DNA of 64,000 bases from Cyanobacteriota bacterium (GCA_046045965.1 JBJOKS010000003.1:32001-96000), one strand, 5' to 3'. Positions 51,726 through 64,000 are shown, counted from the stretch's first letter. The notes: generated by a model from the sequence alone, not told the origin. Numbers and translations: made by a program.

Positions 51726-51958
51726 GCCTGTGGTTAGTTTTGAGAATCTGGAGCATCACTTTTTCAGGAAAAATATCATGGAAATTCTCGACGATATAGA
51801 TTTTTCAGTTTACAGTGATTGCAGAAAAGTGGAGACAATGCACGATGTGTCAGGAGTATAAAGTCACATTATCAACTTAAAGTGATCTTGATCTAGACAG
51901 ATATTGCAGTCTTCAGTTTAAATAGATTGATTGTGGCAAATTTAGCTTGGAAATAATA

Positions 51959-54100
51959 ATGACAACAACATTTAGCACTCCCAATAACATTCCAGCCGGA
52001 ACTAACACCTTTTCTGTAGATGTAGGAGACTTTAACGGAGACGGCAACCTAGATATAGTGGCAGCAAATGCTGGTGATCTAAACCCTGCAAGTAAAACTG
52101 TCACAGTTCTATTTGGTGATGGAGCAGGTGGTTTTACTGCTTCTACCGTGCCTGTGGGATCAACTTTAAATCCAATTGACGTATTTGTAAGCGACTTGGA
52201 CGGGGACGGCGACGATGACATAGCAGTAGCCAACTTTGATCTGCTAGGTCCTTTTTTCAATCCTGGTGACTCAACTCCCGCCAGCGATATCTCAATTCTT
52301 CTGAACGATGGGAGTGGTTCTTTTAGCGCAGCCACAGATTCTCCCTTTGCTGTTCCTGATGGACTGAGTGCGGTCTCATTAGGAGACTTCAACCATGATG
52401 GCTTTTTAGATGCAGCAGCAGGCGCACTTGACAATGATGATGTCTCAGTCTACTTCGGCAATGGACTGGGTACTTTTGACCCCACTCCTTTGACATATAC
52501 AATTGGTCGGACTACCCGTGATCTTGCTATTGGTGATGTGAATGGTGATGGCTTCGATGACTTGGCAATAGTCAGGAATGATGCCAACTCCGTTTTCGTG
52601 CGCTTAGGGACTGGTACAGATTTATTGTCGGGTGCGCCACAGTTCTCTGCTGATGAAACTCCTTTTCCTGTAGGATTAGATCCCCGTGGAGTAAAAATAG
52701 CCGACATCAACGGTGACGGCAACGCAGACTTAGTAGTAGCAAACAGTGGTAGTAATAATGTTTCCGTGCTACTAGGAAATGGCGATGGTACATTTGGTGA
52801 TGCTACTAACTTTACTGCCGGACCAGGTTCTCGCGATGCAGCTGTAGCCGACTTCGATGGCAACGGACTTCTCGATATTGTCACAGCTAACGAAACCGGA
52901 AACAATATTTCTGTGCTGTCCCGTTCCGTTAACCTTATCGGCACTGCTGGTGATGACATACTCACTGGTGCTGCTGGTGATGACACCCTCACAGGTTCTG
53001 GTGGCAATGACACCTTATTTGGTGGTCTTGGCAACGACTTGCTCAAGGGTGATACAGGCGCTGACTCTCTGGTTGGTGGTGCTGGTGATGACCGTTACGA
53101 AGTTGATGATCCGGGTGACACAGTTACCGAAGATGTTAATGGTGGTATAGATTTGGTTACTTCCTCTTTGAGTTTTATTTTAGGAGAGAACCTAGAAAAT
53201 CTGACTTTAAGGGGAACCGGCATTATCAATGGTACAGGTAACGCTCTAAATAACAGCATCATCGGCAATAGTAACAGTAACACCCTGACAGGTAATGGTG
53301 GTAACGACGAGCTTAGAGGTGGTGCTGGTGACGACACCTTATTTGGTGGAGACGGCAACGACACACTAGTTGGTGGTCTGGGCACTGATTCTCTGGTTGG
53401 TGGTGCTGGTGATGACACTTATGTCATTGATGGTTTGATTGACACAATTGTCGAAGCTGCTGGTGGTGGTACTGATACGGTTAGATCCTCAGTAGATGTT
53501 ACATTAGGAAGCAATTTAGAAAACCTGATTTTGAGTGGAACCGCTCTCAATGGTGGCGGTAACAGCCTAAATAATAGGATCGTTGCTAATCCTGCGGGCA
53601 ATAATACCCTGCGTGGTTTTGGTGGTAACGACACCCTGGTTGGTGCTGCTGGTAACGATAGCCTTGATGGTGGTGCTGGTAACGATGTCCTAGTTGGTGG
53701 TGCTGTTGACGACAACCTATTTGGTGCTAGTGGTAATGACGTGTTAATCGGTGGTTTAGGTAATGACAACCTGAATGGTGGTCTCGGTAGCGATATTTTC
53801 CGATTTAATAACCTAACTGAAGGGGTTGATACAATTCAAAGCTTTTCAAGCACCGACGACACGATTGAAGTATCAGCCACTGGTTTTGGTGGTGGTTTAC
53901 TTGCAGGTGTTTTAGCTGATTCAGCTTTCGTTTTTGGTGCAGGTATCACGACAGCTAGTGATGCTGCCCATCGATTCATTTACAACACTACCAATGGTGC
54001 TTTGTTCTTTGATGCCGACGGGATTGCAGGTGGTAGTATCCAGATAGCAACTCTCACCGGATCACCTGCTCTCACTGCTGCTGACATTGTTGTTATCTAA
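51959..54100 (+). CDS. FG-GAP/VCBS repeat + RTX Ca-binding protein, likely type I secretion cargo
   Basis: GDFNGDGNLD-type repeats, then GGxGxDxL nonapeptides; C-terminal FIYNTTNGALFFDADG..IATL..DIVVI; no Sec signal. Confidence 0.9.
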   Translation: MTTTFSTPNNIPAGTNTFSVDVGDFNGDGNLDIVAANAGDLNPASKTVTVLFGDGAGGFTASTVPVGSTLNPIDVFVSDLDGDGDDDIAVANFDLLGPFFNPGDSTPASDISILLNDGSGSFSAATDSPFAVPDGLSAVSLGDFNHDGFLDAAAGALDNDDVSVYFGNGLGTFDPTPLTYTIGRTTRDLAIGDVNGDGFDDLAIVRNDANSVFVRLGTGTDLLSGAPQFSADETPFPVGLDPRGVKIADINGDGNADLVVANSGSNNVSVLLGNGDGTFGDATNFTAGPGSRDAAVADFDGNGLLDIVTANETGNNISVLSRSVNLIGTAGDDILTGAAGDDTLTGSGGNDTLFGGLGNDLLKGDTGADSLVGGAGDDRYEVDDPGDTVTEDVNGGIDLVTSSLSFILGENLENLTLRGTGIINGTGNALNNSIIGNSNSNTLTGNGGNDELRGGAGDDTLFGGDGNDTLVGGLGTDSLVGGAGDDTYVIDGLIDTIVEAAGGGTDTVRSSVDVTLGSNLENLILSGTALNGGGNSLNNRIVANPAGNNTLRGFGGNDTLVGAAGNDSLDGGAGNDVLVGGAVDDNLFGASGNDVLIGGLGNDNLNGGLGSDIFRFNNLTEGVDTIQSFSSTDDTIEVSATGFGGGLLAGVLADSAFVFGAGITTASDAAHRFIYNTTNGALFFDADGIAGGSIQIATLTGSPALTAADIVVI

Positions 54101-54279
54101 AGCACTGATCCAGCCTGTGAATATTTTTCTCAGACTGACATTTTGCCTGGTTAACAGATAACAATAAGTGGATAAAGGCGCAAGGGGATAAAGGAAAAAG
54201 TGTGTAACTTTCCTTTACCCTTTGTTTTTTCACCTTTGGCAACCTATTTCTGTTATCTTTTAAACAACACTTTATAACA

Positions 54280-55014
54280 GTGGTAAATCTGCTGAGAAGT
54301 AATATGAATCCGGTTCTCCAATTTGGCGATCGCATACTGACTGCCCCAGAAGTTCTGCAATTAGTTGGCAAATACCAACTAGTATCGCCATTACTTAAAG
54401 AGGTAGTCATTGATCAAGCGATCGCACAGATTGAGTGTACACCACAAGAAGAGCAACTTGCCTGTGAACAGTTAGCCCAACAATATCAAGGGCGACAAGA
54501 ACAGGGAATAAATTCCGAACAGTTGAATAATCTCGCTATTCGCCAACTAAAACTAGAGAAGTTTAAAGAAGCTTCTTGGGGACAAGATTTAGACTCTTAC
54601 TTTTACCAACGCAAACCCCAATTGGATCGAGTTATATATTCCCTAATTACCACTTCTGATATTGGCATTGCTCAAGAAATCTACTTCCGCATCCAAGAAG
54701 GAGAACAATCTTTTGCTCAACTAGCACGGGAATACGCCCAAGGTCCTGAAGCTCAAACAGATGGCTTAGTCGGTCCTGTAGAATTACAATCTCTGCATCC
54801 CATGTTGACAAAAGTATTATCTATGAGCCAACCACAGCAACTTTCACCACCGACTCAAATAGGAGAATGGATAGTGATTGTTCGATTAGAAAAGCTATTA
54901 CCTGCACAGTTGGATCGCCAAATGCGTCAGCGATTACTGAACGAACGTTTTCAGAGTTGGCTACAAGCACAAGTAGCACCACAAAACTGGCAAATTCAAC
55001 AATCACAAGATTGA
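54280..55014 (+). CDS. PpiC-type peptidyl-prolyl isomerase associated with type I secretion
   Basis: VIYSLI..AQEIYFRIQEGEQSFAQLAREY.QGPE..GLVGP; start may be ATG 54304. Confidence 0.85.
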   Translation: MVNLLRSNMNPVLQFGDRILTAPEVLQLVGKYQLVSPLLKEVVIDQAIAQIECTPQEEQLACEQLAQQYQGRQEQGINSEQLNNLAIRQLKLEKFKEASWGQDLDSYFYQRKPQLDRVIYSLITTSDIGIAQEIYFRIQEGEQSFAQLAREYAQGPEAQTDGLVGPVELQSLHPMLTKVLSMSQPQQLSPPTQIGEWIVIVRLEKLLPAQLDRQMRQRLLNERFQSWLQAQVAPQNWQIQQSQD

Positions 55015-55134
55015 CCGGTTTAGGAAATTTTTCATAGGAGATATGGATTTTTAATAGTATCCCTAAAAACGATATGATGGCAATAATGCAGTAATTGTCT
55101 TAAAACTAATAGTAATTAATTAACTTTCATAAAC

Positions 55135-58100
55135 ATGACTTATAATAATAACTCCTTTGCAGAATTTCTCACCACCGTTGCCGGATTTGACAAATTATCA
55201 ACGGCAGAAATAAACAATTTACTGTCACAACAGCAAGCTTTACGCTACCGAATAGGTCAGAAAATAATTAGTAAAGAAAAACTACCAGACCGCATAGCAA
55301 TTCTTTACGAAGGACGCGTAAGATTATTAGGATATGACCCTCAGACCCAATTGCCAATTACCTTAAAAATACTAGAACCGGGAGCCATAATTGGTGAAAT
55401 CAGTTTGTTGCGGCAGATAGCTTGTGAAACAGCGATCGCATCCACAGAAGTGATATGTTTAACCTTCAGTACAGCAGATTATTTACGTCTGATCTTCCAA
55501 AATCCAGCCTTTGCTAATGTGCGTCAAAATGGTAGTCACATCATAGAAGTATTTGATGTTCTTAGCCCACTGTTAGCCCAACAAGCTAATGCTAGTTTAA
55601 ATATCAAAGAACTCAGTCAACAAGTGTTATCTAGCGCGAAAATCCATCACCTACCACCAGGAAAAACGCCCTTAAACCAACTAGAAAGTGATAGAATCTG
55701 GCTGGTTAGTGGTGGTGGTACTGTAGCTAATTTTCCCCCTGGTTCTCAGCTAGAATCTATCAGTAATAGAGACATTTTAGAAGTAACAGGCAGCAGTCCT
55801 GCACGTTTATTAGGTATCAATCCCGCAGATTTAGTATTCCTAAATCAATATCAAGCAGAAGCAGAACAGACAAATCATCAACAACAAACCACAGATGAAT
55901 TAGACATTCCCTACGCAAAAACAGAGGAAGTTTTTCCCTCACCACCCCAAACACCACAAACCAAACAAAATCACCAAAAATACCCATTTTTTCGCGGACA
56001 AGGGGCAATAAATTCTACCTTGGCTTGTTTCCAAATGCTGTCCAAGCATTTAGAAATACCCTTGCGTAAAGAAGTAGTACGTCGGATTTTAAACGAACAA
56101 ATTAAACGTCAGGGAAATATATCCTTTCCAGCTTGCGCTTATTTAGGAGAATTAATTGGTCTCAAATCCCAATTAATAGATATTCCTGCAACCTCAATTA
56201 CACGCATTCCCACACCTGCACTAATTCAATATCGAGATAGCTATGCTGTCATCTATGCAGTAGAGACAAATACAGTAGTTTTAGCTGTGCCATCAAAAGG
56301 TATCATCACTTGCAAACCTGGCCAACTACTGGAAGAAATAGAAACTGATGAAAGCAATTTGCAACCACAAATTAGGGTATTACTTTTCAGTGCTACCCAA
56401 GAAACACCTCAACAACGCTTTGGTTTAAGCTGGTTTTTACCTTACCTATCACGTTACCGTCGAGTATTAATAGAAGTATTTATAGCTTCCTTTTTCGTCC
56501 AACTGGCAGCTTTAGCAAATCCTTTAGTTATTCAGTTAATCATTGATAAAGTCATCGTTCAAAATAGTATTAGTACCCTAAATATTTTAGGAGTTTTGTT
56601 ATTAGCAGTTGGTGTATTTGAAGCAGTGTTAACTACATTGCGAACTTACTTATTTGTGGATACTACCAACCGCATTGATATGAGTTTAGGGTCACAAATT
56701 ATTGACCACTTACTCCGCTTACCATTACGCTATTTTGAACGCCGACCAGTAGGTGAACTCTCAACTCGAATTAATGAATTGGAGAATATCCGTCAGTTTC
56801 TTACAGGTACAGCTTTAACAGTGGGTTTAGATGCAGTATTCTCGGTGGTTTATATCATCGTCATGCTGTTTTATAGCTGGCAACTGACTGTAGTAGGATT
56901 AGGAACAATTCCGCTATTTGTGGTGATTACATTAATTGCCGCCCCAACAGTTAGCCGACAGTTACGAGCCAAAGCTGAACGCAACGCAGAAACTCAATCT
57001 TATTTAGTTGAGGTGATGTCAGGTATTCAAACAGTAAAAGCGCAAAATATCGAATTGCGATCGCGTTTTTCCTGGCAAGAACGTTATGCTCGGTTTGTCT
57101 CCGCAGGTTTTAAAACAGTCATTACTTCCACTTTAGCTAATTCAACCAGTCAGTTTCTTAACAAACTCAGCAGCTTATTAGTTTTGTGGGTAGGAGCTTA
57201 TTTAGTATTAAAACAAGAGTTAACTTTAGGGGAATTAATCGCCTTTAGAATTATCTCCAGTTACGTTACTAGTCCCATCTTGCGTTTAGCACAAATCTGG
57301 CAGAACTTCCAAGAAACCGGCTTATCTTTAGAGCGATTAAGCGACATTGTTGATACACCCCAAGAAGCAGAAGCAGACAGAGATAACATTCCCTTACCCG
57401 CCATATCTGGTGCAGTCAAATATGAAAATGTTTCCTTCCGATTTGCCCCTAGTGGACCACTGCAACTCAACAATGTCAGTCTTGATTTTCCGGCTGGTAA
57501 ATTTGTGGGTATTGTCGGACAAAGTGGTTCAGGTAAAAGCACAATGATGAAATTACTGCTCAGACTTTATAATGTTGAGTCTGGTAGAATTTTGATTGAT
57601 GGATATGACATCAGCAAAGTAGAACTTTATTCTGTGCGTAGACAAATTGGTGTCGTTCCCCAAGATCCACTTTTGTTTGATGGCACAGTTCAGGAAAACA
57701 TTGCATTGACAAATCCTGATGCGACAACAGAAGAAATTATTGAAGCTGCGCGAGTTGCTGTCGCTCACGAATTTATCATGAACCTGCCTAATGGTTATAA
57801 CACCAGAGTCGGTGAAAGAGGTTCAGCCCTTTCTGGAGGACAAAGACAAAGAATAGCGATCGCTCGTTCTATTTTACAAAAACCCAAATTATTAGTCTTG
57901 GACGAAGCCACCAGCGCCTTAGATTATCCCACAGAAAGACAAATATGTCTCAATTTAGCTAGAGCATTTCAAGGAACAACCGTCTTCTTTATTACTCACC
58001 GTCTCAATACCGTGAGTAATGCTAATACAATTGTTGTCATGGATGGTGGTCGAGTGATAGAACAAGGTAGCCATCAAGAATTAATGACTGCTAAAGGTCA

Positions 58101-58140
58101 TTATTTCTACCTCTATCAACAACAAGAAGTTAATTTGTAA
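55135..58140 (+). CDS. HlyB-type type I secretion ABC transporter with cNMP-binding and C39-like domains
   Basis: GQSGSGKST, LSGGQRQR, LDEATSALD; ABC TM domain; N-terminal cNMP-like region. Confidence 0.93.
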   Translation: MTYNNNSFAEFLTTVAGFDKLSTAEINNLLSQQQALRYRIGQKIISKEKLPDRIAILYEGRVRLLGYDPQTQLPITLKILEPGAIIGEISLLRQIACETAIASTEVICLTFSTADYLRLIFQNPAFANVRQNGSHIIEVFDVLSPLLAQQANASLNIKELSQQVLSSAKIHHLPPGKTPLNQLESDRIWLVSGGGTVANFPPGSQLESISNRDILEVTGSSPARLLGINPADLVFLNQYQAEAEQTNHQQQTTDELDIPYAKTEEVFPSPPQTPQTKQNHQKYPFFRGQGAINSTLACFQMLSKHLEIPLRKEVVRRILNEQIKRQGNISFPACAYLGELIGLKSQLIDIPATSITRIPTPALIQYRDSYAVIYAVETNTVVLAVPSKGIITCKPGQLLEEIETDESNLQPQIRVLLFSATQETPQQRFGLSWFLPYLSRYRRVLIEVFIASFFVQLAALANPLVIQLIIDKVIVQNSISTLNILGVLLLAVGVFEAVLTTLRTYLFVDTTNRIDMSLGSQIIDHLLRLPLRYFERRPVGELSTRINELENIRQFLTGTALTVGLDAVFSVVYIIVMLFYSWQLTVVGLGTIPLFVVITLIAAPTVSRQLRAKAERNAETQSYLVEVMSGIQTVKAQNIELRSRFSWQERYARFVSAGFKTVITSTLANSTSQFLNKLSSLLVLWVGAYLVLKQELTLGELIAFRIISSYVTSPILRLAQIWQNFQETGLSLERLSDIVDTPQEAEADRDNIPLPAISGAVKYENVSFRFAPSGPLQLNNVSLDFPAGKFVGIVGQSGSGKSTMMKLLLRLYNVESGRILIDGYDISKVELYSVRRQIGVVPQDPLLFDGTVQENIALTNPDATTEEIIEAARVAVAHEFIMNLPNGYNTRVGERGSALSGGQRQRIAIARSILQKPKLLVLDEATSALDYPTERQICLNLARAFQGTTVFFITHRLNTVSNANTIVVMDGGRVIEQGSHQELMTAKGHYFYLYQQQEVNL

Positions 58141-58249
58141 TTAATCACTGGTAAGTTGTCAGTGGATTAAACTAATTCATACTTGATAACTGACAACAGA
58201 TAATAAATCTGATATTCACCGAATCTTCAAATCCTGATCTAAAATTGTT

Positions 58250-59809
58250 ATGACTCAAACTAATGGTAATCAAATCAACGGTAACGCAAAAAAACAAAAT
58301 CTAGAATTACTGACACCTACAAAAAAGGCTAAGACAGATTCTTTAACTAATGCCTATCAAGATAGTTTTGAACAATCTATAGTCTTACGTCAATCACCAG
58401 TTTGGTCACGCACCATCATGATCACTCTGATGGTTGTAGCTTGTTTTGGAGTTGGTTGGGCTTATTTTGCCAAAATTGAACAAGTAGTACCCGCAGCAGG
58501 TCAATTAAAACCAGAAGGAACTGTCAAAGAAGTACAAGCTCCTATTAGTGGTGTTGTCAAAGCTGTTTATGTCAAAGATGGACAAGAAGTAAAAGCAGGG
58601 GACTTACTCTTAACATTTGAATCTGTTGCTACCCTCGCTGAATTAAGTTCCTTAAATAAAATTCGCGTTGCTTTAACCAGGGAAAATGATATTTATCGTC
58701 GCTTGATGGGAGCAAGCACAGGTATCACATCAGAATTGGATTTTTTACGTGGTAACTTACCAGCAGAAACAGCTTTTCTCCTCAAAAATCGAGCATCATT
58801 AGTATCAGAAAATGAACTACTGCGTTCTCAATTAAGAAACACAACACCAGATGCTGGTGAAGGAATTGATGAACAACAACTGCTCATAGCTGCTAAAACA
58901 GAATTAGATTCCCGCTCCGCTGCTGCTCAATTAGAAGTTGAAAAAATTAGAAAACAATTATCTCAAACAATATTAAGAAGGAAAGATACTCAAAATAGTT
59001 TAGCTATTCAAGATGGGATTTTAGATAAACTCCAAACATTAGCACAAGAAGGGGGAATTTCCCAACTACAATATCTTAACCAGAAACAACAAGTACAAAC
59101 TCTCCAAGCAGAAATAGATCAATTAATAGAGGAAGAAAAACGCCTCCAATTTGATATTGAGAGAGGACAGCAGCAAGTAACGAATACAGTAGCAGTTACT
59201 GATAAAAATGTTTTGGATCAGATAGCTAACAACAAAAAGCGAATTGCGGAAATTGATAGCCAATTCATGAGGATTATTCTGGAAAATGAGCAGAGATTGG
59301 CAGATATTAACAGTAGAATTTCTCAAGCACAATTAAATGTGAGATATCAAGAACTCCGCGCTCCTGTAGCGGGGATAATATTTGATATGCAAGCCAAGAA
59401 TGCGGGTTTTGTAGCCAACCCCACACAAAAATTATTGCAGATTGTACCTAATGATAAATATGTAGCTGAGGTATTTATCACCAATCAAGATATTGGGTTT
59501 GTACAGAAAGGTATGAAAGTAGATGTGAGAATTGATTCCTTTCCTTTTAGTCAGTTTGGAGATATTAAAGGTGAGGTAATTGATATTGGTTCAGATGCTT
59601 TACCACCTGATCAGATTCATCAATTTTATCGTTTTCCAGCTAGAGTCAGTTTAGAGAAACAAAGCATAGTAGCTCAAGGTAGAAGCATTCCTTTACAGTC
59701 TGGGATGTCTATTACTGCTAATATTAAGGTGCGTGAGGAACGCAGTGTATTGAGTTTGTTTACGGAGATGTTTACCAAGCAGGTTGATAGTTTGAAAGAG
59801 GTGAGGTAA
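58250..59809 (+). CDS. HlyD-family membrane fusion protein
   Basis: VKEVQAPISG, VKDGQEV, LRAPVAG, DIGFV..DSFPFSQFG, LQSGMSITANI. Confidence 0.93.
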   Translation: MTQTNGNQINGNAKKQNLELLTPTKKAKTDSLTNAYQDSFEQSIVLRQSPVWSRTIMITLMVVACFGVGWAYFAKIEQVVPAAGQLKPEGTVKEVQAPISGVVKAVYVKDGQEVKAGDLLLTFESVATLAELSSLNKIRVALTRENDIYRRLMGASTGITSELDFLRGNLPAETAFLLKNRASLVSENELLRSQLRNTTPDAGEGIDEQQLLIAAKTELDSRSAAAQLEVEKIRKQLSQTILRRKDTQNSLAIQDGILDKLQTLAQEGGISQLQYLNQKQQVQTLQAEIDQLIEEEKRLQFDIERGQQQVTNTVAVTDKNVLDQIANNKKRIAEIDSQFMRIILENEQRLADINSRISQAQLNVRYQELRAPVAGIIFDMQAKNAGFVANPTQKLLQIVPNDKYVAEVFITNQDIGFVQKGMKVDVRIDSFPFSQFGDIKGEVIDIGSDALPPDQIHQFYRFPARVSLEKQSIVAQGRSIPLQSGMSITANIKVREERSVLSLFTEMFTKQVDSLKEVR

Positions 59810-59820
59810 AAAGATAAAAT

Positions 59821-59856
59821 GCAAAAGGTAAAGGTTAAAATTTGCCTTTTGCTTTG
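59821..59856. terminator. Hairpin terminator after hlyD
   Basis: GCAAAAGGTAAA-N8-TTTGCCTTTTGC followed by a T-rich tail; lies between convergent genes. Confidence 0.6.
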
Positions 59857-59934: not shown

Positions 59935-60981
59935 TTAATTAGATATTTGTAATAATTTTAATTCCTCAATTAATTCTTTAATTAAAGGTCGGTAAATAGT
60001 ATTATCTAAATGTTCTTGATACCAAATTTCATAATCTCCTAATACTTTTAAATGCAATTCAATTTGTCTAGCTTCTTCTAGTAATACCCATAAATTATGG
60101 GTGGCTCGATTATAAAAACCAATTCCTCCACTCATTTTCAGACCTTCTAAACCATATTGTTTGCACGCTGGACATTGACATTTGTTAAGCTTTTTTTCTT
60201 CTTCTTCACTAATTTTTCTACCTCGCCAATTTCCTAATTCAGCAACTATGCGATCACCTGTTCCTGGTAGTTGAATTATTCCCCTAGCTGCACGATTTCG
60301 CCAACCACTAGAATCAACTGAATTAATACCTAGTAAGGCTGCTATATGTAAAGTTGCTGTTCCTCCAATGCCAAAAATATGTAGTTTTTTATTAGGAAAT
60401 TGTTGATGGAAATGAATTAAGTTATCTATAATTTTTTTATGCGGAATAGCTTTAGATGCACGTAATAAATTAGGAACAATTCCACCTAATGCTATATATG
60501 GCTTTTGAGATAAAGTTTGGCTGTTAACTATTTGTTCTATATATTCTTCTAAAAAATTACTAATATGAACTACTGGAACATAATCACCTTGATCATAACG
60601 AAAGTTCATATTCATGGTTTTTTTAAAACATAGTTCCTGTTCCTTTAAGGTCATTTTAGGAATGGGAATAAAATCTTGAGGAATAGGATACCAGTCTGGT
60701 TTTGCTTCTTTAATAAATTCTGCATATTCTTCTACAGGGACTTCTTGATTGTTTTTAACAAAGGAAAAAGCACCATTATCAAGATAAAATTTTACATTTT
60801 TAGGAACTCCTAAATATTCATGTAAACCTTGTTCCATTGCTTTTTTTCTTTGACTAGGCATTTTATGAAAATCAGCGTAGGAAACCATCACTGCTTGCAG
60901 GTCTTTGAGGTAATACGGTGATGTGGAGTCCCAAACACGGGGTTTTATTCCTTTTAGTCCAAAACCAGCGACTATTTGCAC
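59935..60981 (-). CDS. tRNA-guanine transglycosylase (TGT/DpdA)-superfamily protein
   Basis: YLDNGAFS, PQDFIP, PVVH, IALGG, LHIFGIG, SVDSSGW, Zn site CQCPAC...HN. Confidence 0.75.
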   Translation of the reverse strand: MQIVAGFGLKGIKPRVWDSTSPYYLKDLQAVMVSYADFHKMPSQRKKAMEQGLHEYLGVPKNVKFYLDNGAFSFVKNNQEVPVEEYAEFIKEAKPDWYPIPQDFIPIPKMTLKEQELCFKKTMNMNFRYDQGDYVPVVHISNFLEEYIEQIVNSQTLSQKPYIALGGIVPNLLRASKAIPHKKIIDNLIHFHQQFPNKKLHIFGIGGTATLHIAALLGINSVDSSGWRNRAARGIIQLPGTGDRIVAELGNWRGRKISEEEEKKLNKCQCPACKQYGLEGLKMSGGIGFYNRATHNLWVLLEEARQIELHLKVLGDYEIWYQEHLDNTIYRPLIKELIEELKLLQISN

Positions 60982-60987
60982 TACTTT

Positions 60988-62643
60988 TTAAACAATTTTT
61001 TGAATAAATGACTGATATTTAGATAATAGTTTTTGTTTGACATTTTGAGTCAACCACTTACCTACATCTTTAGAATATTTATGAGATTGTTGTGTAACAG
61101 ATGGTATTAAGTAAGTGATAGGATCATCACTCATAAAAGAATGATCTTCATCAACTTCAAAACTACAGTATTTAATAGCTGTTAATATCTTAGCAGATAT
61201 TGATTCAACATTATGACTATTTTCTGAGAAAAATTCATAACGTGGTAATAATTTCTTAGGACTTTTAGAATGTCCAATAAAAAACATATAAGTATGAAAT
61301 TTTTCGCATAAATCTTTGTAAGGTTCTATGTCAATACGACTTCTTTCATCTTCAATTCTTTGACGATACCTGTTAAAATACGATTCATCTAATGCTTTTA
61401 AATTAGCCTTTTCATTTAATGTTGCTCTGGTTGTAAATGACCTACGAATTAAACAAGTACACATAGCTTTTTTCAACCCATTTTCAAAACAATCTGGAGA
61501 GGATAACAGTAAAGTCATTGCTTGCCCATCAGTTAAAGTATAATTTCCTGTTTCCCAATTTTCATCTATGTATTTTGCGATATACCAATCTAAAACAGAA
61601 CTATATACTTTTAATCGAACATTTTTAGAAACTCCACAATAAATTCGATTAAAATCCCTTGCTGAGTTTATACACTCTCTCAGTGCTTGAATAGCTTTTC
61701 TGGTAAATTCACCTCGCCTATTATCAATGATATAATTATCTAAATAAGCATCTTGTGGAAACAAACTACCATCTCTAAGTATAATATCAGGGCAATCTTT
61801 ACCAGCGTTTAGTAAATATTCGTGGTCAAAAACATATTGGCCTACATCCATAGCTGAAGCGGTACAACGATGAAAATCTTCTGGTTCTAACTCATCTTGA
61901 TAAGATGGATCTATTAGCATCCATTGAAGTAAATCTTGAGTAGGTTCTGGATTAAATCTACCTTGATCAAATATAGCCTTACCATTATTTACTCTAACAA
62001 TTGCACCCGCAGCATTGTTTAATAAAAAAGGTACAGTCCGATTAAAAAAACGAGCAGGATAAGGAACTGAACTACGATGTTGACTTACGTCTGAAGAACC
62101 TATTAGAAAATTACCATTATTCCATAAACTATCATCACTTTCAATTGAATTGAGAAAATATTTTCCAACAATATGAGTAGCAAGGTGTTGTGTAATTAAT
62201 TCTTCATTTAATTCAACTTTCCACTTACGACTTCCTTTCGCTGGAGGAGTAATATTAACTTGTTCTTTTGTCATTCCAAAGCCACGAATAGCAACTTGTT
62301 TAAGTAATTTAGCTAACCGTTCTGACTGATTTGAATTTTCCTGTATTTCTTCTTTCAAATCCTGAAAAAATTCAAAATATAATTCTCTTGGATCTTTTTG
62401 TGATAGATGTTCTCTTGCCTTTTGAATAGTAGTTTCCCATTGATCTTGAGCTTTAACTAATTTGCTCATATATTCAACGGTTTCTTCCAATGGATCGTGA
62501 TTTTTTAGAGTATCATAACTATTAATTTGTTCACGCTCTAAAACTTGATAGTTTGAGTTTGCTTCACTTAAAATCTCATCAAAATTCATTTCTAATTGAA
62601 TATAATTGGAGTTAACATTACTAGATTTGTGCTTACGAGGCAT
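60988..62643 (-). CDS. NurA-like (RNase H-fold) nuclease with N-terminal helical extension
   Basis: GSSDVSQ, IILRDGSL, CGVSK, QQSHKYSK; directly downstream of the HerA-like gene. Confidence 0.65.
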   Translation of the reverse strand: MPRKHKSSNVNSNYIQLEMNFDEILSEANSNYQVLEREQINSYDTLKNHDPLEETVEYMSKLVKAQDQWETTIQKAREHLSQKDPRELYFEFFQDLKEEIQENSNQSERLAKLLKQVAIRGFGMTKEQVNITPPAKGSRKWKVELNEELITQHLATHIVGKYFLNSIESDDSLWNNGNFLIGSSDVSQHRSSVPYPARFFNRTVPFLLNNAAGAIVRVNNGKAIFDQGRFNPEPTQDLLQWMLIDPSYQDELEPEDFHRCTASAMDVGQYVFDHEYLLNAGKDCPDIILRDGSLFPQDAYLDNYIIDNRRGEFTRKAIQALRECINSARDFNRIYCGVSKNVRLKVYSSVLDWYIAKYIDENWETGNYTLTDGQAMTLLLSSPDCFENGLKKAMCTCLIRRSFTTRATLNEKANLKALDESYFNRYRQRIEDERSRIDIEPYKDLCEKFHTYMFFIGHSKSPKKLLPRYEFFSENSHNVESISAKILTAIKYCSFEVDEDHSFMSDDPITYLIPSVTQQSHKYSKDVGKWLTQNVKQKLLSKYQSFIQKIV

Positions 62644-62644
62644 T

Positions 62645-64000
62645 TTACTTATCCTTTTCTTTTAATTCACCAATTTTAGTAATCCAAGTATCTTGCATTT
62701 CTTGGAAAATATCGGGAGTTTTCCCACCTTCTGAATCTTCAGTATTACGTTTTCTAATTTTGACTGGAATTGTATGTTTAATACTTTCATAAGTTCCAGA
62801 AATTAAACAAGTTCCCTGTGGCATTTTAGGTAAAGCTCGTAACATTTCATCAGTTGCATCTGCTTTTACACCCTTAATAGCATCTAGCTGATCTGGCTCT
62901 AAAGCAAAAACTAATCGAGTATTGCATTGACGAATCACACTTTTATCAATATCAACAGGACTCTGTGTCATTAAAACCATACAAATTCCATGATGTCTTC
63001 CTATTCTGACTCCTTCTCGAATAATTTGTTTACAAGGACTACCTTCTCCCTGTGGAACAAATAAATGGGCTTCATCAACTACAGCTACATAAGGAGGTAT
63101 ATGACCTTTTAATCTCAAATTTTGTAGCTCTCTTAAAACTGCTGTTGCTATAGATTGAAGTTGTTTTGAAGTTAAATTTTTACAATTAATAGATAAACAG
63201 GGATATATGAGTTTTCGCCAGTCGGCAACACCATCTCCAAAAATTTTATACCCTTCTATACTTTTTTTTAACCTTCTTTCAACTGTGTCAATCACTCTTG
63301 GTAATTCTGCTTTTTTCGCTACATATTGTTCTGATATTTCTGGAATTTTATCTATCATATCTTTCAATCTAAATTTTGGAATATCATCATTTTGTAAATT
63401 AGTTTGTAAGTCTCCAAAAACTTTACTGACGATATCACGTTGTAAATCACTGTTTTTCATGGCAGATGGTAATAACTCTAAAAGTTCTGATTCAGTTAAT
63501 GATGAAATACGAATACTAAAATCCTTACCTGGTTCAACAACTTGACCACCATTTTTAATAACAAAATCTGAATACTCATCCTGAGTATCAATAAAAACAA
63601 CTGGTAAATTATGTTTAATTAACTCTTCTGCAACAACTCCCATTGCATAACTTTTACCGCTTCCAGTTGTTCCACAAATAAAGAAATGTCTTTGAATTGC
63701 TTGTTTTTTAAGAATAATATTTGTTTCAACACCTCCTACCGTTTTACCTAAAAATAAACCTTTTGATTTTTCTGTATCTATTCCTAAAACACGAACTACT
63801 TCACCAGAATCAGCGATAAAAACTTCAGAACCCGAATTAGGTAAATTTTGAGGTGATCTAATTTCTTTACCAATAAGTTCTTCTATTAAATCAGCTTCAA
63901 CTAACCGATAAATATCTGTACTATGTTCCTCTGACATAGATGGAATAGGAAGTCCTAGATTATCACTAACAGTTACACCAGCTACACTTTTATTTGGGTT
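62645..64000 (-). CDS. HerA/FtsK-family ATPase (DUF87), 5' end beyond the window
   Basis: RHFFICGTTGSGKS, FIDTQDEY, VVDEAHLF, REGVRIGRHHG, MTQSP; frame stays open from 63937 to 64000 (NPNKSVAG..), so the ORF-track start is probably internal. Confidence 0.88.
   Translation of the reverse strand, partial: NPNKSVAGVTVSDNLGLPIPSMSEEHSTDIYRLVEADLIEELIGKEIRSPQNLPNSGSEVFIADSGEVVRVLGIDTEKSKGLFLGKTVGGVETNIILKKQAIQRHFFICGTTGSGKSYAMGVVAEELIKHNLPVVFIDTQDEYSDFVIKNGGQVVEPGKDFSIRISSLTESELLELLPSAMKNSDLQRDIVSKVFGDLQTNLQNDDIPKFRLKDMIDKIPEISEQYVAKKAELPRVIDTVERRLKKSIEGYKIFGDGVADWRKLIYPCLSINCKNLTSKQLQSIATAVLRELQNLRLKGHIPPYVAVVDEAHLFVPQGEGSPCKQIIREGVRIGRHHGICMVLMTQSPVDIDKSVIRQCNTRLVFALEPDQLDAIKGVKADATDEMLRALPKMPQGTCLISGTYESIKHTIPVKIRKRNTEDSEGGKTPDIFQEMQDTWITKIGELKEKDK

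Follow-up and report, generated by a model that had tools for sequence, protein, structure and literature searches.

At the right-hand end of a 64,000-nt stretch of DNA from Cyanobacteriota bacterium GCA_046045965.1 (JBJOKS010000003.1:32001-96000, referred to as the window), three closely spaced minus-strand genes encode a HerA-type ATPase, a NurA-fold nuclease and a protein with the fold of the TGT transglycosylases; reading on in the same contig past the window end adds the first gene of the operon, which encodes a DUF6884 protein. On balance, we consider this cassette to be probably a compact Dpd-like self-marking module that works without DpdB and is coupled to a HerA-NurA restriction module. 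Judged from its sequence, it is apparently an undescribed and widespread relative of Dpd, in which the restriction module is combined with a distinct clade of transglycosylases. In Dpd, DpdA inserts preQ0 aided by the ATPase DpdB, and DpdC turns dPreQ0 into dADG (GATOR-GC preprint; PMC12839542).

The four-gene operon and its products

Along the direction of transcription the genes are ordered DUF6884 - HerA - NurA - TGT, with spacings of 15 nt (HerA/DUF6884), 1 nt (NurA/HerA) and 6 nt (TGT/NurA), and the final 451 codons and the stop codon of the HerA gene lie inside the window, the remainder outside. The features are as follows (L001 denotes the numbering of the extended locus, C3:91000-110000):

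59935..60981, minus strand: predicted TGT-fold base-exchange transglycosylase (DpdA analogue), 348 aa, the last gene of the operon
60988..62643, minus strand: NurA-fold nuclease of 551 aa, whose N-terminus carries an additional helical region of about 120 residues
62645..64000, continuing to window-equivalent 64186 (L001 3646-5187), minus strand: HerA-type hexameric ATPase/translocase, 513 aa
Window-equivalent 64202-64927 (L001 5203-5928), beyond the window: DUF6884/YaaA-like DpdC-type protein, 241 aa, the first gene of the operon
59821..59852 (L001 822-853), no strand assigned: terminator-like hairpin from a consensus scan, a 12-pair stem followed by a T-run

The first-pass annotation had described three tight minus-strand genes with gaps of 1 and 6 nt and TGT motifs in the last of them, which the open reading frames (ORFs) and their translations bear out, and its HerA-like, NurA-like and TGT-like domain assignments are all upheld by profile scores and folds. 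The HerA start that it had chosen, giving a protein of 430 aa, is an internal ATG, as the contig ORF comprises 513 aa; its expectation that the operon extends beyond the window was correct, the extension consisting of one further gene, that of the 241-aa DUF6884 protein. It had also set the TGT-like protein apart from housekeeping Tgt, and this distinction stands; the host carries a separate Tgt.

The motifs LDNGAF, LHIFGIGG, VDSSGW and CQCPAC...H are all present in the 348-aa TGT translation, which passes the Pfam TGT family (PF01702; 31.2 bits, cut-off 26.3) and finds DpdA as its best PADLOC match (E 1.5e-11). Its AlphaFold2 (AF2) model is a TGT barrel with a predicted local distance difference test score (pLDDT) of 94.9, and the structural comparison by VIA aligns it with Pyrococcus horikoshii arcTGT (1iq8; Z 30.5, root-mean-square deviation (rmsd) 2.5, 310 residues aligned), bacterial TGT (3unt; Z 25.6), DpdA (7ui4; Z 24.7), QTRT2 (Z 22.9) and Cap10 (Z 18.8), with which Foldseek concurs. 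The protein aligns to residues 34-357 of the 577-residue arcTGT chain and ends after the catalytic domain, without the C-terminal tRNA-binding domains. In an alignment of 42 sequences, D68, G70, H139, G166, H201, D223, C268, C270, C273, R292, H295 and N296 are invariant, with D103 and F72 conserved in no fewer than 90% of the sequences. Alignment to arcTGT by HMMER assigns D68 as acid/base, D103 and H139 as base-binding residues, D223 as nucleophile and C268/C270/C273/H295 as the zinc site; mapped through the same alignment, the conserved residues correspond to Asp95, Phe99, Asp130, His181 and Asp256 of DpdA, which are described as essential or invariant (PMC10164549). As far as aligned residues can tell, the active site is intact and of the exchange type, with three Asp residues and a Cys3-His zinc site.

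Two established identities were considered for this protein and rejected. As a housekeeping Tgt it would be expected to match TIGR00430, for which no match was found at E<=0.1, and the genome holds its own Tgt (513 bits) on a separate contig, C48; as an arcTGT it scores only 34 bits against a cut-off of 350 (TIGR00432) and the C-terminal tRNA-binding domains are absent. The score for tgt_general (28.9 bits) is likewise below the cut-off (47.6). Searching 1.84 billion representatives in full with HMMER yielded 524 matches at E<=1e-3, and none of the 78 full-length matches reached the arcTGT, DpdA or Tgt cut-offs, while a word-indexed search recovered a family of 1516 proteins at 90% clustering, mostly 60-87% identical. 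Among 50,697 phage records no close homologue was present, the distant matches being STSV1/2 (about 27% identity) and one Sulfitobacter phage.

A maximum-likelihood (ML) tree of 83 rows comprised 19 family rows (out of 81), 54 representatives (out of 78), seven cyanobacterial DpdA domains, a TGT-like protein encoded beside one of these DpdAs (L119), the host Tgt as outgroup and a TGT from a haloarchaeal plasmid. In this quick tree, which gave long-branch warnings and whose rows exclude curated arcTGT, phage DpdA and Cap10, the TGT family forms, together with one representative, a clade with 97% support in the SH-like approximate likelihood ratio test (SH-aLRT), nested in a wider unnamed clade (100%) and apart from bacterial Tgt.

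The DUF6884 protein passes its Pfam family (PF21818; 42.7 bits, cut-off 30) and is just below that of YaaA (28.0 against 29.6); in PADLOC it matches DpdC (E 4.7e-6, residues 10-69) and PDC-M57A (E 5.9e-9), a name (PDC-M57) that was not found in the literature searched. DpdC itself is a protein of the DUF328/DUF6884 type (GATOR-GC preprint; PMC12839542), and DUF6884 is defined by the motifs CxxxK and LSAxxG (Pfam paper, PMC11701544), of which C9 and K13 as well as S52 and G56 show no variation among 29 homologues. The C-terminal part of about 90 residues is also conserved (W195, K207, W208); this domain gave no Pfam match at E<=0.05 (four members) and no usable Atlas match, and it may be a reader of the modified base. 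The operon copy is the sole DUF6884 gene of the genome. A prediction of the complex between TGT and DUF6884 proteins, run without controls, scored 0.00 against a mark of 0.32, a value that speaks neither for nor against an interaction. A search for longer relatives found no fused forms above 610 aa, a negative of little weight, and among 390 collected proteins scanned locally with profiles, a single one, P0166 (411 aa), has a fragment of DUF6884 after its TGT part.

HerA, the sole ATPase of the cassette, matches Pfam DUF87 with about 84 bits (84.3-84.7), HerA_C with 40.9-41.7 bits and AAA_10, belongs to PF01935 by the family test, and matches PADLOC HerA models with E values down to 2.3e-28. 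Its translation shows a Walker A (GTTGSGKS) and a Walker B motif (VVDEAH), and its PDB sequence matches are Sso HerA (4d2i, E 2.2e-14) and Thermococcus kodakarensis HerA (9x1l, E 4.3e-14). The assignment of the nuclease is marginal at the level of profiles: Pfam NurA (PF09376) is reached with 22.3 bits (cut-off 21, E 1.1e-4), there is no PADLOC or NCBIfam match, and profiles of this NurA and of a second version described below (types A and B) retrieved no NurA among PDB sequences, where only the fold search did so. The AF2 model (pLDDT 82.3) finds Sulfolobus solfataricus NurA as best VIA match (2ygk_B; Z 20.5, rmsd 4.9, 293 of 319 residues aligned). Four further chains of NurA or TdpB follow at Z 12.3-13.0, among them TdpAB (8wet_G, 13.0) and Deinococcus radiodurans HerA-NurA (7f6d_G, 12.9), and all top ten Foldseek rows are NurA or TdpB. 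The modelled fold confirms the marginal NurA call. At E<=1e-5 the family counts 238 proteins, hardly any of them named, and its invariant acidic and His residues include D185, D245, E255, D291, D298, H458, D498 and H501.

Partner modules and genomic setting of the related loci

Conservation was followed in 99 related loci (18 genome loci, one plasmid locus and the best 80 of 253 metagenome loci), whose ORFs were scored against twelve reference proteins, the remaining ORFs being clustered. They fall into the following types:

Type A, DUF6884-HerA-NurA-TGT: 24 loci
Type B, DUF6884-NurA'-HerA'-TGT: 39 loci
Type C, NurA''-HerA''-SbcD-SbcC, usually with DUF6884-TGT adjacent and with IrrE-like peptidase genes: 15 loci
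Type B+C, both modules: 2 loci
Type D, DUF6884-Z1 domain protein-TGT: 4 loci
Type E, beside BrxA/BrxB/BrxC/PglX-like genes: 1 locus
Unclassed: 14 loci, of which 11 have less than 3 kb of upstream flank

A module of the HerA/NurA type is thus found in 80 of the 99 loci, in three non-homologous versions, and the conservation of the triad elsewhere, on which the first-pass annotation had made its proposal depend, is thereby established. Of the 46 loci whose upstream flank reaches at least 4.5 kb, 41 carry HerA/NurA, one Z1, one BREX genes and three no module, and DUF6884 is present in 39. The HerA proteins of types A and B share about 24-30% identity, and for their NurA proteins no homology is detectable (hhalign probability 0.2). 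Mapped onto a tree of 81 TGT rows, the module type switches at least 25 times, compared with an average of 38.6 for shuffled labels, which means that the labels are still clustered; the near-identical TGTs of L005 and L038 carry type B and type A modules, respectively. Because module changes are this frequent on the TGT tree, the writer-like pair of DUF6884 and TGT is the stable unit, around which the nuclease motors are exchanged, and the partners behave like interchangeable restriction modules. The gene set is spread over cyanobacteria, Gemmatimonadota, Actinomycetota, Chloroflexota-like metagenome-assembled genomes (MAGs) and others.

Several of the loci show arrangements of their own. In the Z1 loci (L095, L106, L108 and L111, all metagenome contigs) a 737-aa Z1-domain protein is encoded between the DUF6884 and TGT genes; in L086 the pair is followed by BrxA/BrxB/AAA/BrxC/PglX-like genes, and in L096 it adjoins a 1461-aa protein with PD-(D/E)XK nuclease and superfamily 1 (SF1) helicase parts. 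Among the type C loci, 12 contain IrrE/ImmA-like M78 peptidase genes, one or two per locus, and four contain a sigma-70-like gene; the products may be regulators of the cassette (examples at L017 125-1489, L026 905-1690, L040 757-1557 and L070 10552-12642). Uma2 genes are very common in cyanobacteria, and for this reason it may be coincidence that a gene for a putative restriction endonuclease of the Uma2 family lies directly downstream of TGT in seven loci (L002, L003, L004, L008, L013, L018 and L090; Pfam E 2e-33 for the L004 member). L004 (7428-9582, from a Nostocaceae MAG) looks like a decayed copy, in which DUF6884 is intact, an unrelated ORF of 251 aa takes the place of HerA-NurA and the TGT frame has just 192 aa, its match beginning at query residue 74. 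On the Haloferax alexandrinus plasmid pBNX82-4 (L027, 5967-12511), a distant TGT (24% identity) has as neighbours a protein of 964 aa that is likewise annotated as TGT, a 'BREX system ATP-binding domain' protein and a gene of the PTPS/QueD-like kind, an arrangement resembling the published BRC system (BREX-related capture); similar TGT matches were found on five other haloarchaeal plasmids.

The distribution of the cassette is patchy, and it is mobile and set in a defence island. A cassette-type TGT occurs in nine of 401 sampled cyanobacterial genomes and in six of 155 genera, it is present in neither of two same-genus genomes, and one copy resides on a 40-kb mobilizable Aulosira plasmid. In the same-genus genome G107 the genes flanking the cassette (HlyD-family gene and transaldolase) are 7.5 kb apart on one contig (L134, G107:C14:71200-79100), and the slot between them holds the type I-C genes cas3, cas5 (cas5d), csd1/cas8c and cas7 in place of the cassette, which is why we regard the HlyD-transaldolase slot as a variable defence locus. 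The G+C content is 0.30-0.33 in the cassette region, compared with 0.38-0.47 to its left; this, together with the recurrence of the gene set in other phyla, makes the cassette more than a chance grouping of genes. The defence context proposed by the first-pass annotation accordingly gains substance from low G+C, plasmid copy, patchy spread, a toxin neighbour and the cas genes of G107. In PADLOC no known defence system was matched as a whole, and PDC-M57A covers the DUF6884 domain only.

The terminator-like hairpin sits between the convergent ends of the HlyD-family gene (59809) and the TGT gene (59935); it is a pattern match only, and six such sites were seen for 2.7 expected. The promoter scan was uninformative (33 sites, 33.7 expected). 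Metatranscriptome contigs identical to parts of the operon occur in two libraries from two studies and extend over up to 1156 nt of NurA-HerA; as these are contigs only and DNA carry-over is possible, they do not prove transcription, and the absence of such contigs over other parts of the operon carries no information. Upstream of the DUF6884 gene the strand switches, and a YafQ/ParE-type toxin gene, transaldolase, pyruvate kinase and GAPDH follow. The toxin gene (L001 6282-6569, plus strand; window-equivalent 65281-65568; Pfam YafQ_toxin E 1.7e-11) belongs to a type II toxin-antitoxin pair, the putative antitoxin probably being a short ORF that overlaps its start. Between this pair and transaldolase (window-equivalent about 65646-65839) there are two direct copies, 93% identical, of a heptamer-rich 42-nt repeat with ATCCTGN-like units (L001 6647-6688 and 6799-6840); with dozens of matches in two same-genus genomes, and with spikes in depth along with numerous joints in four metagenome runs, the element is a dispersed short repeat family of the host lineage. 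To the left of the cassette (51947-59809, plus strand), four proteins resemble a type I secretion set, judged from their translations: one of 717 aa with FG-GAP-like and GGxGxD (RTX-type) repeats, one of 244 aa, an ABC transporter of 1001 aa and an HlyD-family protein of 519 aa.

Relation to Dpd islands and other HerA-containing systems

Canonical DpdA (NCBIfam, 350-489 bits) is present in eight of the 401 sampled cyanobacterial genomes, none of which is among the nine with a cassette-type TGT. In all three loci that were opened it is a DUF6884::DpdA fusion of 711-805 aa (460-489 bits), and these loci, from three other cyanobacterial genomes, are:

L141 8103-10250: canonical DUF6884::DpdA fusion
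L142 9009-11144: canonical DUF6884::DpdA fusion
L143 9283-11700: canonical DUF6884::DpdA fusion

Their neighbours are DEAD/SNF2-type helicases (three of three loci), a DndB-like DpdB (two of three) and QueC with a radical-SAM gene (one of three). Because the canonical cyanobacterial islands fuse DUF6884 to DpdA, the pair of DUF6884 and TGT-fold proteins in the cassette mirrors DpdC and DpdA. The host encodes QueC, PTPS/QueD-like genes, QueF and Tgt, and preQ0 should therefore be available. YhhQ is a preQ0 importer, and a gene of this family (Vut_1/YhhQ) lies directly upstream of DUF6884 in four of the 99 related loci, with QueC adjoining TGT in a further three. YhhQ has also been named among dpd neighbours (GATOR-GC preprint).

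Like the Dpd systems of Salmonella Montevideo and others (dpdA-K), the cassette combines a TGT-fold enzyme with a DUF6884/DUF328-type partner, occasionally has QueC/YhhQ-type neighbours, and is patchy and island-borne. In contrast to Dpd, its transglycosylase is a separate clade below the DpdA equivalog cut-off, and the HerA-NurA pair stands in place of DpdB and of the helicase and PLD genes of DpdD-K; of the fuller set of dpdA-B-C and dpdD-K, only DpdA-like and DpdC-like functions were found in the cassette. With Tdp (tdpABC), listed in the literature as a phosphorothioate-based system, it shares the coupling of a DNA-modification gene to a HerA-type ATPase and a NurA-type nuclease, and the NurA model matches chain G of 8wet (Z 13.0); the Tdp mark, however, is a backbone sulfur introduced by TdpC, whereas the cassette is predicted to exchange a base and has no Dnd or TdpC-like gene. 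The archaeal and bacterial end-resection complex of HerA-NurA with Mre11-Rad50 has the same two folds, Sso HerA (4d2i) and Sso NurA (2ygk) being the best PDB matches, and the type C relatives bear SbcD/SbcC (Mre11/Rad50-like) genes; unlike that complex, the pair in the cassette is accessory, has a patchy distribution on plasmids or islands and always comes with a TGT-fold gene, and its NurA has the extra N-terminal region.

BRC (HerA/FtsK, GNAT, TGT and BREX-like genes) likewise joins a HerA/FtsK translocase to a TGT homologue proposed to mark DNA without DpdB (PMC12839542), and the relative L086 adjoins BrxA-BrxB-BrxC-PglX-like genes. It differs in its seven components, among which are PglZ, a STAND NTPase and DUF4007 but not DpdC, and NurA is nowhere mentioned in PMC12839542, whereas the cassette has four genes, among them DUF6884 and NurA. 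A paper on HerA-anchored capture systems (PMC10853773) contains no occurrence of TGT, Dpd or DUF328. Sir2-HerA and DUF4297-HerA are similarly small defence operons that pair a HerA ATPase to an effector, but in the cassette the effector is NurA and two genes of a base-modification pathway are added. In the literature searched, which left subscription reviews on 7-deazaguanines outside, no paper was found that combines a TGT/DpdA-like gene with HerA and NurA; within that scope the combination is undescribed, as the first-pass annotation had supposed.

Proposed self-marking and its alternatives

In the mechanism that we propose, the TGT-fold enzyme would swap guanine for preQ0 in the host's own DNA, with preQ0 supplied by the queuosine pathway of the host and with the double-displacement chemistry of TGT enzymes, D223 serving as nucleophile and D68 as acid/base. 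The inserted base would be the substrate of the DUF6884 protein, which in the simplest case would hydrate the nitrile and so yield dADG, and a HerA hexamer together with NurA would thread and degrade DNA that does not carry the mark, by analogy with TdpAB. HerA-NurA is known for DNA end resection, and TdpAB senses, and is held back by, the phosphorothioate mark. It is possible, though we offer this tentatively, that DUF6884 and TGT together form a portable, DpdB-independent 7-deazaguanine writer, of a clade nearer to archaeosine enzymes than to DpdA, which plugs into exchangeable motors (two unrelated HerA-NurA pairs, NurA-HerA-SbcDC, Z1, BREX) and in which HerA-NurA restricts DNA unless the base is modified.

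A number of observations weigh against self-marking in this form. The TGT-like protein is far below the NCBIfam cut-off for DpdA (NF041059; 37.4 against 200 bits), the DpdA domains cluster separately on the 83-row tree (93%, or 100% with L119) with the TGT family apart from them, and by structure the model is nearest to the catalytic domain of archaeosine-TGT, a tRNA enzyme. By curated cut-off as well as by tree, the protein is therefore not a canonical DpdA paralogue; as to its position relative to tRNA-acting enzymes, it does not group with bacterial tRNA Tgt, yet the structural nearness to arcTGT remains a caution. No DndB/ParB-like DpdB gene is present in the cassette or its flanks, although preQ0 insertion by Salmonella DpdA required the ATPase of DpdB (PMC10164549), and the one DndB-family (PF14072) match of the genome is weak and on another contig (C21). 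Among the well-flanked loci DUF6884 is absent from seven of 46 and a recognised nuclease module from three of 46, and adjacency to QueC or YhhQ is rare (seven of 99 loci). The suggested role of DUF6884 as nitrile hydratase is extrapolated from DpdC on a weak hidden Markov model (HMM) match (E 4.7e-6, 60 residues). Finally, sequence alone cannot separate a DNA substrate from tRNA or protein.

Another reading, which we regard as unlikely, is that the cassette excises bases or targets modifications: the TGT enzyme would attack guanine, or 7-deazaguanine of phages, in DNA entering the cell, leaving a covalent or abasic lesion; the DUF6884 protein would bind this lesion, and HerA-NurA would resect from the break that results. 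Many cyanophages carry deazaguanine DNA, and HerA-NurA requires a DNA entry point. TGT chemistry involves removal of the base and a covalent intermediate (PMC10164549), and a DUF6884 member, Bacillus subtilis YfjM, has been reported to bind abasic and RNA-base lesions, CxxxK being conserved (PMC11701544). However, the QueC/YhhQ-type neighbours in seven loci and the DUF6884::DpdA fusions in writer islands suggest that deazaguanine is supplied and inserted, the conserved base-binding residues are those serving exchange, and the phage records hold no close homologue that would suggest an origin in an arms race. The first-pass annotation had allowed for marking as well as excision; of these, self-marking is favoured because of the DpdC-type DUF6884 gene, the QueC/YhhQ neighbours and the interchangeable nuclease modules, and excision has receded.

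We also find it improbable that the cassette is a machine for modification only, in which HerA would provide ATP-driven handling of DNA in DpdB's stead, NurA would open or trim the DNA, and the mark would be epigenetic or protective. It would account for the missing DpdB, given that DpdA needed an ATPase in vitro (PMC10164549) and that HerA is the only one at hand. In an operon with gaps of 1-15 nt, the TGT gene comes immediately after the HerA/NurA pair. On the other hand, phage DpdAs function without DpdB, and base exchange requires no nuclease; moreover, the partner is swapped among non-homologous HerA/NurA pairs, NurA-HerA-SbcD-SbcC, Z1 and BREX, which fits replaceable restriction modules better.

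Weakest, and quite improbable in our view, is a non-DNA substrate, with the enzyme modifying tRNA, as its closeness to arcTGT (Z 30.5) might suggest, or a protein, as with the similar Cap10 (Z 18.8) of type IV CBASS, a PDB title of which refers to a complex with nucleobase-modified CD-NTase, and with HerA-NurA being an independent neighbouring pair for repair or defence: the tRNA-binding domains of arcTGT are missing, the cassette has neither CD-NTase nor QueC-like Cap9, HerA/NurA accompanies the TGT gene in 41 of the 46 well-flanked loci, across phyla and with translationally tight genes, and the DUF6884 partner has a fold of the DNA-binding type and is fused to true DpdA elsewhere.

If self-marking by the cassette is borne out, 7-deazaguanine marking of DNA would not be limited to large Dpd islands and phages and would also be carried by a four-gene cassette across phyla, so that cyanobacteria and several other phyla would share it as a widespread self-label. 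HerA-NurA would then be used a second time, after the phosphorothioate-based Tdp, as a modification-sensitive restriction module, and the transglycosylase, being independent of DpdB, would be of interest for site-directed exchange of DNA bases. For cyanobacterial genetics, the cassette would represent a further barrier to transformation.

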